From positions 768,001 through 832,000 of the forward strand of contig CAVYXA010000001.1 of the NCBI GenBank assembly GCA_963772365.1: a DNA stretch of 64,000 nt. Direction: 5' to 3'. The number at the start of each line of letters is the position of its first letter. Position 1 is the first letter of the stretch. Below the pieces are notes generated by a model. That model searched no databases. It had not been told where the DNA came from and saw only the letters and a list, made by a program, of their open reading frames with translations. The position numbers and the translations under genes are program-made. Of this stretch, positions 54,172 to 58,886 are shown piece by piece. This stretch comes from an uncultured Verrucomicrobiae bacterium. GTDB taxonomy: Bacteria > Verrucomicrobiota > Verrucomicrobiia > Chthoniobacterales > UBA10450.

Positions 54172-54196
54172 ATGGGCAACTCGTGTCGCCATATCA

Positions 54197-54400
54197 TGTC
54201 ATTCTGAGCGAAGCGAAGAATGAAGCGAACGGGATGAACGACATGGACCGTAAGACCGTGAGGGTAACGGCGAGTGAGTCGGGAGACGAACGAGTTCAAT
54301 CTCCAATCTTTTCCATGGCTCCGCGAGAGGCAAATGAATCGAGAGGTTTCCAGGCTTCGCCTAAAGCTACGACCTGGCAAACGCTCCGCTCAACACCACA
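54197..54400. repeat. composite family B repeat with an ~80-nt internal module and a nested family E element
   Basis: TGTCATTCTGAGCGAAGCGAAGAAT...; 54197-54303 nearly identical to 58658-58765; nested CCAGGCTTCGCCTAAAGCTACGACCTGG at 54350. Confidence 0.85.
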
Positions 54401-54537: not shown

Positions 54538-55113
54538 ATGGACACGCTGACTGCCATTGTGGAGCTGGTAAAGGCGCTTGCATGGCCCGCAAGCGCGTTC
54601 GCTATCGTCTTCCTTTTGCGCCGCGCGATCCTTCGGCTGATGGACTCGATTCGCGAAGGCCGCGTCAAATACAAGGATGTCGAATTCACCTTTAAGCGCG
54701 ACCTTGAGCAAGCTCGAGAATCAATCAAAAAGATCGAGACAATTTCCTCCCCCGCTTTACCCGCTCCGAAAGAGCCAGAGATCGATGATCTCATGGCTCT
54801 CGCGGAGCTTTCGCCACGCGCCGCGGTGGTCGAGGCGTGGATACGCCTCGAAGCCGCAGGCGCAGAGTTTGCTCGGAAGCACGCCCCAGCCGAGGCATCG
54901 AGGCAACGAAGGCCGTCGGTGTATCTAGATGTGCTTCGGCGCCATGAATCGGTTCCCACCGCCGTCATGACGGCTATTCAGAAGCTTCGCGACATCAGAA
55001 ATCGGACAGTGCATACACCTGAGTTCCAGCCTTCGGTGGACGATGCAGAAGAGTATGTGTTGCTTACTTTCGCAGTCGTTGAAGATCTCCGGCGAATCAC
55101 CGAACAGACCTAA
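54538..55113 (+). CDS. integron cassette 1: N-terminal TM plus HEPN-like domain
   Basis: ALAWP TM helix; LRDIRNRTVH (RxxxxH); stop lies inside the inverse core GACCTAAC, which complements GTTAGGTC at the cassette start. Confidence 0.75.
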   Translation: MDTLTAIVELVKALAWPASAFAIVFLLRRAILRLMDSIREGRVKYKDVEFTFKRDLEQARESIKKIETISSPALPAPKEPEIDDLMALAELSPRAAVVEAWIRLEAAGAEFARKHAPAEASRQRRPSVYLDVLRRHESVPTAVMTAIQKLRDIRNRTVHTPEFQPSVDDAEEYVLLTFAVVEDLRRITEQT

Positions 55114-55230
55114 CCATGCGATGCAGCCAACCACTGGCCGGCGTACGGCGGAGATTTTCATGACTCAAACCTCTTATTCCGGTGCCACGCGCGCTCTCGC
55201 CAGCGGTGGCTGATCTTGGTCTCGTTAGGC
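55108..55230 (+). other. attC site 1
   Basis: ACCTAAC...GTTAGGC; imperfect palindrome CAGCCAACCACTGGC/GCCAGCGGTGGCTG. Confidence 0.9.
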
Positions 55231-55240
55231 CTCATCGGAC

Positions 55241-55645
55241 ATGAATACGATTACAGATATTGAAACACTCTACGCCCGTTTAGGCGAACGCGACTACGAA
55301 GCGGTGATGTCGTATTTGGCTGACGACATTGTCTGGATCGTGGCTGACAATTCGCCATTGGCGGACCGCAGCCCGTATCACGGGATAGCGGCGGTGCGCT
55401 CAGGCATTTTCGAACGCTTAACGGCGGGTTTTGACAAGCTCGTCTTTAACGTGGACGATATCTTTGAGTGCAACGGCGGCGAGAGAGTTGTGGCTCTCGG
55501 CTACTATCACTTCAGATTTCACGGGCAAGGCCAGGAACGCAAAGCACAGGTCGCCCACGTCTGGACGATCCGCGACGGTCGGGCCGTAAAATTTCAGCAA
55601 TATCTCGACACGCTCCAAGTCGCACGTGATGCGGGAGCTGTCTAA
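55241..55645 (+). CDS. integron cassette 2: SnoaL/NTF2-like protein
   Basis: LADDIVW, YHG, VAHVWTIRDG..FQQYLDT. Confidence 0.88.
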   Translation: MNTITDIETLYARLGERDYEAVMSYLADDIVWIVADNSPLADRSPYHGIAAVRSGIFERLTAGFDKLVFNVDDIFECNGGERVVALGYYHFRFHGQGQERKAQVAHVWTIRDGRAVKFQQYLDTLQVARDAGAV

Positions 55646-55739
55646 GGCGCTCCATGCACTCATCTAACCCCTATGAAGGGTGTCAAAGATAAGTTTTGAG
55701 GATGACGGTTACATTGGTTTGTCAGGTTGTGGGGTTGAA

Positions 55740-55950
55740 CTTGGGTAGGAACGCTTCCGCTTTTGGTGCGCGCTTTGGATTGTTCAGCGGCTGATACTCC
55801 TATCCGCGCATGTCGATGTTAATTTTGACAGCGCAATGTGACTTATTCCGTCTCGACTGAAGCGGAACTTTGGCGCGGTCCAATCTAAAGCGACGAAGCT
55901 CGTCGTTTTAACGGTTCAGGTTAGATCCCGGACACGCGCCACGTTCCAAA
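55740..55950 (-). ncRNA. candidate bridge/seekRNA of the IS1111 element
   Basis: Nested stems plus 7-9-nt matches to the target and the circle junction (see findings). Confidence 0.6.
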
Positions 55951-55974
55951 ACTGTTCCCCTCGAACTTGAGTAG

Positions 55975-57078
55975 TTAATTAATTAGGCCGAGCCGGGCTG
56001 CGCTACAGCGTCCGGTGTGCACGCGCCACAGATCGACGGCCAAATGCCGGGCCACAGCGACGATGGCTTTTTTGCGTTGTGCGCCGGTGGCGGGCGCGTC
56101 CTTTGCCAGGATAGCGAGCCGTTTTTTAACTGGTGGATATTGCGGCTGGAAACGCACCATGCGCCAGGCGCACTCGACCAGCGCGGCTCTTAGCCGCGGG
56201 TTGCCTCGTTTGGTCACACTGCCCGCAACTCGTTTACTCCCGCTGCTGCGCTCGCCGGGACACAGTCCGGTGTAAGAACTGATCGCGCGCCGATTGTTAA
56301 ACCGGTGCCAATTACAGATCTCGCGAGTGAGCACCACGCTGGTGAGTTTGCCGATCCCGGCCGGTATGCAAGCCTCCGCCGCCGCTTCCAATTCACTGGT
56401 TAGGGCGTTAATTTGCTCCTCTAAACTCAAAAGAGCGGGTCGTGCCACATCCAGCCGTAGCCTGATCCAGACCGGCAGATGTTTGCCCAATCGGCTCCAG
56501 GTCTGTTGTTTCCACCAATGAGCCGGCGCTGCCAGCGCGTGATTGATTAGCAGCGAGCGCCCTTGGGCTTCGAGCTTCTGCCGATGATGCACCAGTTGTC
56601 CACGCTGACGCGAAACATGCCGGGCCTGTTCTTCTTCTTCGCTCGGCACCCGAATCACGGCCAGTTCCCAGGTGTTGCCTTCCACATAACGCGAGAGCCG
56701 CTGACACAACGTCAGAGCATCGCGCGGATCGGTTTTTATTCCCGTGCCCTGTTCGTCGAGTTTGCGCGGCGCAATCACGCAGCAATGTGCTCCAGCGGCA
56801 CACAACTGCCGATACAGTCCGAAGCCAAACCCGCACGCCTCATAAACCACATGAACCGTGTGACCCCTTCGCAACACTGCTTCCACCCAGGGAACAAACT
56901 CGGGAGGGGCAAAGCGTCGAGGCGCCTTGGGCAAGAGCTGATCGTATTGGGCCACTACCACATAGACCCGGGCGTGCATGTCCAGTCCAAGCTTGATCAC
57001 CGAGTACGGGAGCTTTACTTTACCAACGGCGCCCTCGGGTGAGGTCGCCCCTTCGTTATGAACGATTGTATTTTGCAT
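55975..57078 (-). CDS. IS110 DEDD recombinase/transposase
   Basis: GLDMH, YEACG, KTDPRDA (D-E-D-D); GLCPGERSSG with catalytic Ser; GNPRLR; AVAR. Confidence 0.95.
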   Translation of the reverse strand: MQNTIVHNEGATSPEGAVGKVKLPYSVIKLGLDMHARVYVVVAQYDQLLPKAPRRFAPPEFVPWVEAVLRRGHTVHVVYEACGFGFGLYRQLCAAGAHCCVIAPRKLDEQGTGIKTDPRDALTLCQRLSRYVEGNTWELAVIRVPSEEEEQARHVSRQRGQLVHHRQKLEAQGRSLLINHALAAPAHWWKQQTWSRLGKHLPVWIRLRLDVARPALLSLEEQINALTSELEAAAEACIPAGIGKLTSVVLTREICNWHRFNNRRAISSYTGLCPGERSSGSKRVAGSVTKRGNPRLRAALVECAWRMVRFQPQYPPVKKRLAILAKDAPATGAQRKKAIVAVARHLAVDLWRVHTGRCSAARLGLIN

Positions 57079-57383
57079 AGTGCGGGTGAGCTTAACCACT
57101 CGCCCGCACCCTTACATGCCATCTAGCCGGTCCAGCCGATCGCGAGCCGTTCCGATTTCTAGCTTTGCGTCAATCCTCCACACTTTCTTTGGTGTCACGC
57201 GCGGTTCCGCTCGCCGTCGCTCAGCTCCGTCTCGTTAGATGTTCTGACTACAACAAGATGGCGGGTCGAGCCGAACTGGCCTAGCGACCTGCTCCATCAT
57301 GCCGGAGTTTTGTGAATAACTCGCGAAATTGCAAAACTTGGTGATTGACTTGCCGGGCGTTTCCGTCCGAAATCGCTCGCATT

Positions 57384-58007
57384 GTGAAAACTCCCTCAAC
57401 AATCCTTTTCAGTTTGCTGGGTGTTCTCGTGGTCGCCTTTGCGACTCCGGCGTCGGCCAATCTCATCGTTAATGGTGGTTTCGAAACCGGCGATTTCACC
57501 GGCTGGACCCAAGCAGACAATACCGCATTGACCGGTGTAAGTGCAGGTGCAGCGTACTCAGGGAATTTTGGAGCTTATATGGCGCCGCCAGATTCGACCG
57601 GTACTCTCTACCAGGAGTTCGCGACGGTTGCCGGCGCTTTCTATGATTTGACTTTCTACCTGCGCAACAGCGGAGGTGGAACTGGCCCCAACGTTGATGG
57701 GGAGCCCGTTGACTTTCGGGTTGCTTTTGCTGGAAATTTTGTCCCAGGAGGGGATGTCTCGGATGTGGGAAGTTCTTTCACGCAATATACCTTTACTGTC
57801 CAGGCGACCAGCACGTCCACGCGTCTCGAATTTGTCTTCCGGAACGATTCTGACGTTTTCAATCTCGACGATGTCTCGGTAGAACTGCACCAGACCAGCG
57901 GTGTCCCCGAAACGGGCAGCAGCGCGTGGCTAATGGCTCTGGCGTTGGCGGGACTCTTCGGAGCGCACCGCATTTTTGGGCGCGCCGCCAGACACGTGCC
58001 AGCGTAG
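57384..58007 (+). CDS. VPDSG/PEP-CTERM-type exosortase substrate with a CBM-like domain
   Basis: Signal peptide, NLIVNGGFETGDFTGW, LDDVSV, C-terminal VPETGSS, TM helix and basic tail. Confidence 0.85.
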   Translation: MKTPSTILFSLLGVLVVAFATPASANLIVNGGFETGDFTGWTQADNTALTGVSAGAAYSGNFGAYMAPPDSTGTLYQEFATVAGAFYDLTFYLRNSGGGTGPNVDGEPVDFRVAFAGNFVPGGDVSDVGSSFTQYTFTVQATSTSTRLEFVFRNDSDVFNLDDVSVELHQTSGVPETGSSAWLMALALAGLFGAHRIFGRAARHVPA

Positions 58008-58628: not shown

Positions 58629-58657
58629 CCGCTCCCTGGAACTGGAACAGCCCATCC

Positions 58658-58791
58658 TGTCATTCTGAGCGATGCGAAGAATGGAGCGAACGGGATGAAC
58701 GACATGGACCGCAAGGCCGTGAGGGGTAACGGCGAGTGAGTCGGGAAACAAACGAATTCAATCTCAATCCATTTCCTAGCTCAACATGACA
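58658..58791. repeat. composite family B repeat, copy 2
   Basis: Nearly identical to 54197-54303; ends GCTCAACATGACA. Confidence 0.85.
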
Positions 58792-58812: not shown

Positions 58813-58886
58813 CGCGCCCGAGAGGATTCGAACCACTAACCTTCTGATCCGTAGTCAGATGCTCTATCCAGTTGAGCTACGGGCGC
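58813..58886 (-). tRNA. tRNA-Arg(ACG), CCA not encoded
   Basis: Reverse complement GCGCCCGTAGCTCAACTGGATAGAGCATCTGACTACGGATCAGAAGGTTAGTGGTTCGAATCCTCTCGGGCGCG. Confidence 0.96.

Follow-up and report, generated by a model that had tools for sequence, protein, structure and literature searches.

Described systems and the element under study

Insertion sequences of the IS1111 type that target integron attC sites include ISKpn4, ISPst6, and ISPa25 (accessible text of PMC11187229), and ISPa21 has also been found in attC sites (accessible text of PMC11616780). The same part of PMC11187229 describes a 3′ non-coding RNA, subterminal repeats, extensions of 7 and 3 nt, no target duplication, and a target at one end of the attC; in IS1111 seekRNAs, including those of ISKpn4 and ISPst6, the guide complementary to the top strand comes first and the match to the bottom strand second. 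In the accessible part of PMC11208160, where six IS1111-group bridge RNAs are drawn (ISCARN28 among them), target and donor domains are separate, and the donor-matching bases lie in a multi-loop. IS621 is described in the accessible text of PMC11208158 as reading two strands around a 2-nt core, one base of which is nearly invariant.

The element described here, from an uncultured Verrucomicrobiae bacterium, lies in the 64,000-nt stretch of DNA that was analysed (the window). It has in common with ISKpn4, ISPst6, and ISPa25 all the features just listed, including the guide order; with the drawn IS1111-group RNAs, the separate domains and the donor-matching bases in a multi-loop; and with IS621, the two-strand reading around a 2-nt core, here CT on the strand opposite the gene. 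It differs from IS621 in that its RNA is downstream of the gene and in that the core base nearly invariant there varies in its targets (G, A, or C); the sequence match to IS621 is weak (E 6e-4). By analogy, it appears to work like the IS1111-attC group (ISKpn4, ISPst6, ISPa21, and ISPa25), a likeness of mode of action and not a claim of membership, the named transposases having been compared by eye only. So compared, its transposase (367 aa, vs. the 330–350 given for IS1111 in the accessible part of PMC11187229) is unlike the ISKpn4 and ISPa25 sequences in the part of that paper's supplement available to us and closer to ISCARN28, with no identity computed. Identity is 22–24% to IS5075, a long branch that is weakly placed, and, where IS5075 scores 22.9%, 28–32% to three other plasmid IS110 proteins; the best plasmid relatives are ~30–34% identical, and no named element closer than this was found.

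The element is a well-supported new example, from a Verrucomicrobiota-centred lineage, of a system described in 2024, and not a new mechanism. The lineage is large, with at least 3,037 protein clusters related to the transposase at E 1e-30. In the accessible literature, subscription papers being outside the scope, no paper was found on this lineage or on hairpin reading; the available parts of PMC13626964, PMC11322120, and 10.64898/2026.08.14.744561 held nothing relevant to either.

Boundaries, ends, and transposase

55670–57124, minus strand: whole insertion sequence, IS110 family with IS1111-type ends, 1,455 bp (second genomic copy and end motifs)
55975–57078, minus strand: intact DEDD transposase/recombinase gene, 367 aa (Pfam PF01548 and PF02371; NCBIfam NF033542)
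57107–57124, minus strand: left end, a 7-nt extension that has the donor core AG as its first bases, followed by a subterminal inverted repeat of 11 nt (sequence; motif kept in homologues)
55670–55686, minus strand: right end, with a TTGACA −35 box (55681–55686), a 10-nt subterminal repeat (55673–55682), and a 3-nt extension (sequence)

The same genome has a second full copy (G000:C1:1245525-1246979, L088), 99.6% identical: there are five differences, every one within the transposase gene, and the non-coding regions are identical. Because it shares the element but not its flanks, the ends can be fixed at 55670 and 57124. The end motifs are the same across the 147 unique loci of the homologue comparison. 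Together, the two findings show that the predicted circle junction is correct.

The transposase has both Pfam domains of the IS110 family and exceeds the cut-off of the family model (186 bits; cut-off 140). The layout is that of IS1111, with ~305 nt of non-coding sequence downstream of the gene vs. 46 nt upstream. So are the ends, with their 7-nt left and 3-nt right extensions, although the subterminal repeat (11 nt on the left, matched on the right by 10 nt with a 1-nt gap) is slightly shorter and less perfect than the 11–13 bp described for the type. A TTGAC occurs within the final 30 nt in 73 of 77 distinct junctions, a count that is partly circular since the end-finding pattern demanded a TTGAC-like word. 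The −10 box at the joined ends is weak (CATGTA, at 17 nt spacing), so that a junction promoter can only be inferred.

A truncated copy elsewhere in the genome (G000:C2:46438-46923, L090) retains the last 60 transposase codons, the entire RNA region, and the right end, followed by GGTTAGG. It could provide guide RNA in trans.

The interrupted attC and its array

54538–55113, plus strand: cassette gene, 191 aa, no family match
55107–55231, plus strand: intact attC of the upstream cassette
55241–55645, plus strand: cassette gene with a SnoaL-like domain (PF12680)
55661–55669, plus strand: R″ box of the attC (CATCTAAC) with the first base of the spacer, on the left side of the element (the rejoined site folds as an attC hairpin and resembles the intact upstream attC)
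57125–57241, plus strand: rest of the interrupted attC, comprising spacer, L″, L′, and R′ (the last at 57234–57241)

Excision of the element in silico restores an attC of ~125 bp, with R″ at 55661–55668 and R′ at 57234–57241. There is no tyrosine recombinase match within the window, making this a two-cassette array without its own integrase. For the second copy, an integron integrase gene is present at a distance of ~2.5 kb. That copy occupies the final attC-like site of an array in which three attC are intact; the distal arm of its own site is missing.

Homologues

A genome scan found 138 relatives, of which 76 loci were taken (52–89% identity); two further genome searches contributed 71 additional loci (35–68% identity). 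With the two copies from this genome there are 149 elements, 147 of them unique. Three loci were dropped as rearranged (L032, L042, and L097), and loci without a readable donor domain were also excluded; with a second pattern, the right end of L130 was corrected, as were three guide positions. The patterns that located ends and anchors were blind to the target flanks, except that the right-end pattern needed A or G, then G. Related homologues are not independent, so that Fisher and binomial p values overstate.

In L032 part of the RNA region is repeated after the right end, and the RNA regions of L097 (in its 5′ half) and L146 are interrupted or rearranged; these may be either assembly errors or insertions into the RNA gene.

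The probable guide RNA gene

55748–55947, minus strand: bridge/seekRNA gene with presumed ends, ~200 nt long and bounded by a basal stem (fold z −2.74; consensus structure with covariation)

The preliminary description had proposed this region as a candidate bridge/seekRNA with a basal stem (55942–55947 with 55748–55753) and two subdomain stems (55935–55941 with 55871–55877, and 55860–55867 with 55755–55762). These stretches do pair as claimed. The minus strand over 55735–55965 (231 nt) folds at z = −2.74, with one of 200 shuffles as good, and a consensus fold of 42 aligned near homologues recovers all three stems. Two-sided changes occur in 18 of its 37 predicted pairs, which is support and not proof, as alignment-derived structures favour high covariation counts and the sequences are related. 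In the consensus the target domain is an internal loop around a variable hairpin, and the donor domain is a multi-loop. The assignment as a bridge/seekRNA is borne out by this conserved scaffold, together with loops that covary with the targets and with the ends of the elements. Judged from sequence, the folded stretch very probably encodes the guide RNA of an insertion sequence that targets integron sites.

It might instead be a structured 3′ untranslated region or terminator, its matches being chance or relics of past insertions. An Rfam search matched no family over the RNA region, as that reading would have it. On the other hand, the loop segments change with each element's flanks and ends, across transposases 35–100% identical, while the scaffold stays constant, and we regard a mere untranslated structure as extremely improbable beside a guide RNA.

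A look-up for expression of the guide RNA returned 24 sequencing runs sharing at most 10% of words; four were examined and contained only contigs of relatives. In one RNA run, a relative's contig of depth 3 spans 55749–55950, differing at 21 letters and by 9 gaps. The relatives' contigs from the four runs showed neither a circle joint nor an empty-site joint, which is evidence for neither side. Contig 17 of run X24, a single contig from a relative at depth 3, has a right-end-like piece, 21 other letters, and then the RNA core; it reads as if an element end were directly upstream of a guide RNA gene.

Target guides

55919–55926, minus strand: 5′ target guide ATCTAACC, pairing with GGTTAGAT to the right of the insertion point in the element's orientation (conservation and covariation)
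55885–55891, minus strand: 3′ target guide GCTTT plus AG, reading the left flank adjoining the insertion (covariation across classes)

ATCTAACC is identical to the sequence at 55662–55669 on the plus strand, the match for which it had been picked out earlier, and conservation and covariation now confirm it as a target guide. Its CTAACC is kept in 53 of 56 distinct near RNAs, and within the attC clade a T or C in the guide tracks an A or G in the target in 42 of 50 RNAs. Relatives with less than 52% identity have a wide range of other targets; in their RNAs the right flank appears as its reverse complement where ATCTAACC would be, and the left flank is repeated just ahead of a conserved AG-ATTG. 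Over 25 guide/target classes (24 distant classes plus the window copy; related classes are not fully independent), the longest match of the 5′ guide to its own flank averages 6.84 nt, vs. 3.23 ± 0.29 when permuted, and the 3′ guide matches its own flank at 3.16 of 4 positions, vs. 1.45 ± 0.18; none of 10,000 permutations reaches either value. The left-flank matches fall off from the junction, at 25, 24, 20, and 10 of the 25 classes for positions −1, −2, −3, and −4. In the attC clade an A at −2 of the 3′ guide goes with a target A in 9 of the 10 RNAs having it, vs. 10 of 40 otherwise. As in IS1111-type RNAs, the complement of the top strand precedes the match to the bottom strand.

This second target guide was absent from the preliminary description, whose author missed it because GCTTT-AG fits the flank of the window copy poorly (one exact nt beside the core). 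That poor fit counts against the mechanism proposed below, as do two further observations. Read by eye, pairing of the 3′ guide in the attC clade appears to call for a 1-nt bulge or for wobbles. Conservation of the left flanks extends to about −19, past the reach of the guides; selection may be the cause, to judge from one genome.

Two other candidates for a second target guide, TGGACCG and GATTGG, match the flank of the window copy or the consensus flank, but were rejected: AGATTG is constant in relatives with unrelated targets, and is therefore scaffold.

Two members of the attC clade (L091 and L092) have altered 5′ guides. L092 lies in a non-attC site with a right flank that agrees with its changed guide, apparently having been redirected from attC to another target.

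Donor guides

55797–55803, minus strand: donor guide ATAGGAG, equal to the predicted circle junction, i.e., right end plus core AG (covariation with right ends)
55839–55842, minus strand: GTCA, perhaps another donor guide, which would pair with the left end (a weaker call)

ATAGGAG had been noted earlier for its match to the circle junction, and is present in 55 of 56 distinct near RNAs. In 85 of 86 distinct RNAs the guide has the same three bases as the tail of the right end (AGG in 60, AGC in 15, AGA in 9, AAG in 1; one mismatch), which makes ATAGGAG a genuine guide to the joined ends. Among homologous copies, then, ATCTAACC covaries with the flank and ATAGGAG with the right end.

GTCA may be a second donor guide. 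The pairing of its RNA base with position 6 of the left end is A/T in 45 cases, G/T (wobble) in 24, C/G in 6, and other in 9; five of 89 RNAs could not be parsed.

Proposed mechanism

In the mechanism that we propose, the ends of the element would join into a circle, which would place the TTGACA box beside the left end and drive transcription, and the transposase would bind the guide RNA. Covariation shows that the target loop spells both sides of the insertion point, ATCTAACC covering 8 bp on one side and the ~3–5 nt before AG the other, and that the donor domain spells the joined ends via ATAGGAG. On this account the target guides are matched to the host's family of attC sites at the R″ box and spacer, read as double-stranded DNA. 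Crossover would take place on one side of the 2-nt core, the other strand not being reciprocally fixed, as reported for other IS110 elements. Insertion would separate R″ from L″ and probably immobilise the cassette. It is very likely, in our assessment, that a two-domain guide RNA from the 3′ non-coding region reads the DNA beside the insertion point in this way, as ordinary duplex, tuned to the host attC family.

The 25 guide/target classes are a natural data set that locates all three guides, two for the target and one for the donor. The lineage they come from is ~30% identical to its nearest plasmid-borne relatives and could be a starting point for a programmable recombinase.

The match to the distal attC arm

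55847–55855, minus strand: CGAGACGGA, not a target guide; variable linker and 5′ arm (55850–55852) of a small donor-domain hairpin closed by 55840–55842

The preliminary description had also proposed that CGAGACGGA, being complementary to 57226–57234 on the plus strand, may be a third guide, directed to the distal arm of the attC, and that the RNA may recognise the attC in its folded, single-stranded form. The complementarity stands, at 9 of 9 positions in the window copy; the guide function finds no support. Only 13 of 56 distinct near RNAs carry CGAGACGGA, all at ≥78% identity; its GAC is paired in a small covarying hairpin of the donor domain (inner pair C-G in 23, U-A in 17, and broken in 2 of 42); and the insertion point within attC is no different for elements with RNAs that lack it. 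On these grounds a distal-arm guide is not supported.

Far-arm matches elsewhere point the same way. A far arm could be recognised at 37 insertions and scored at 36, among which the window copy is the one full match: the other 35 match at 1 to 7 positions of 9. L016 has the same far-arm 9-mer as the window copy with a different RNA segment, and the second copy, identical in its RNA, lacks any far arm within 175 nt. Without the window copy the mean match to the element's own far arm is still slightly above permutation (3.57 vs. 3.38 ± 0.11 of 9; 476 of 10,000 permutations, p about 0.05), a small excess that tells against our reading but may reflect shared ancestry of the RNAs and host attC families. 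The CGAGA part of CGAGACGGA matches a far-arm spacer common in the subclade that carries it, giving 6–7 of 9 in four other copies. An anchor-free test put the far-arm match at 5.66, below both the permuted (5.76) and the shuffled (5.85) values. In 5,000 trials with Markov-shuffled RNA, a chance match of ≥9 nt occurred in 4% against the distal 25 nt (a stretch that omitted the last G, so that the real match scores there as 8) and in 21% against the attC body.

CGAGACGGA is thus not beyond chance by the sequence comparisons, unlike ATCTAACC and ATAGGAG, which are far beyond it by conservation and covariation. It is neither conserved nor covarying with the target, an outcome that the preliminary description had itself named as counting against the idea. 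The two target-loop guides already account for both DNA strands, and a third guide is very improbable. This is the answer of genomics to that description: attC targeting here requires no distal-arm reading.

Strand exchange and the core

Both junctions are available for 112 elements: 64 have AG on the left and GG on the right, 44 AG/AG, three GG/GG, one AG/CG, and none GG/AG. Where the cores differ, then, 65 junction pairs are of one strand type and none is reciprocal. A staggered two-strand exchange fixed at random would be expected to yield both AG/GG and GG/AG. The crossover falls 3′ of CT on the strand opposite the gene, a position matching the first cut of IS621, 3′ of CT (accessible text of PMC11208158). 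The census fits the top-strand-only integration reported for another IS110 element (bioRxiv 10.1101/2025.10.25.684509) and reported single-strand excision (10.64898/2026.08.31.748434), both as given in the accessible parts of those sources; blunt cutting or biased repair would give an identical junction pattern. At 65 to 0 it is genomic support for one-strand integration, a point on which recent preprints disagree.

The core mismatch (target GG, donor AG) was considered as a speciality of attC and rejected as such, since relatives with non-attC targets (L147–L149) show the same asymmetry. One genome has both AG and GG targets for a single RNA.

Duplex or hairpin

Integron integrases recognise the folded, single-stranded attC. 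Targeting might be assisted by that structure even with no third guide: the target loop would read the folded top strand or an extruded cruciform, ATCTAAC would pair with the far R′ box, and replication would complete a one-strand transfer. The one-sided census above and the accessible report of top-strand-only integration (bioRxiv 10.1101/2025.10.25.684509) both suit this reading; the core asymmetry is, as noted, also present in relatives with non-attC targets. A further point in its favour is that 45 of 59 near-clade insertions are attC-like, vs. 11 of the 46 sites at which the linear guide motif occurs in this element's own genome. This enrichment is gone, however, once sites in long reading frames are set aside: outside ORFs of ≥150 aa there are 15 motif sites, of which the same 11 are attC-like. 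The resulting share (73%) is close to that among insertions (76%), in a comparison of one genome's sites with many genomes' insertions, so that linear reading plus selection against gene disruption suffices. The attC preference fits that combination.

The near-clade insertions comprise 36 full attC sites and 10 half sites, all at one position, and 13 that are neither by pattern. These 13 are without the far arm and L″ box, and the far arm could have been lost after insertion; about five resemble decayed attC halves by eye, the folds of the 13 having had no control. Three of them interrupt frames open for ≥130 codons on each side, which counts against a need for attC structure.

What also speaks against a structural substrate is which arm the guide tracks. 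The near R″ and far R′ boxes often differ within an array. At the position where the R box varies, 30 of the 36 attC insertions have a guide that agrees with the near box, and 18 have one that agrees with the far box; where the two boxes differ the guide follows the near one in 15 cases and the far one in 3 (12 vs. 2 at one row per RNA). The base beside the core gives 35 near vs. 0 far, and has less weight as the core base is loosely read. Dependence on the distal arm, the hallmark of folded single-stranded attC recognition, is not seen in these genomic tests: the guide follows the near arm, and the distal arm is not needed. The earlier idea of a folded single-stranded substrate thus finds no support, and structure-assisted targeting is unlikely; reading of the near arm as ordinary duplex is preferred.

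A second lineage aimed at attC

Six loci (L127–L132, from G445 and G761), 36–39% identical, form a second lineage. Its insertion point in the same attC family is likewise fixed but lies 12 bp deeper, at the L″ edge, and its guides are changed accordingly. The R″-edge group is one side of a 99/99 branch, the group itself being defined by ≥52% identity. An independent origin of the two attC-aimed lineages was considered and not adopted, as a tree joining both is not rejected (p-AU 0.375).

A more elaborate proposal would combine a deep Verrucomicrobiota-centred IS110/IS1111-type lineage, aimed at attC at two positions (R″ edge and L″ edge) separately from the proteobacterial IS1111-attC elements, with one-strand transfer into a folded or extruded top strand, the far R′ box serving as partner strand. 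If true, its hairpin-substrate part would mean that an RNA guides recombination into hairpin DNA. Of its components, the lineage and the one-strand transfer are plausible; the hairpin part runs counter to the near-arm covariation, and as a joint reading the whole is quite improbable. Duplex reading by a two-domain guide RNA remains the preferred account for the element in the window.

Other features of the window

58813–58886, minus strand: tRNA gene (Rfam), the sole Rfam match in the search

A ~120-bp repeat (54193–54314 and 58654–58776; halves 93% and 87% identical) brackets the region of the cassette array, its two copies 4.46 kb apart. Between the interrupted attC and the second copy of this repeat, a 220-aa ORF (57345–58007, plus strand) ends with a VPET-G motif and a hydrophobic tail, which we take to resemble a PEP-CTERM-type sorting signal; it has weak, below-cut-off matches to the NTTRR-F1 and choice-of-anchor C models.
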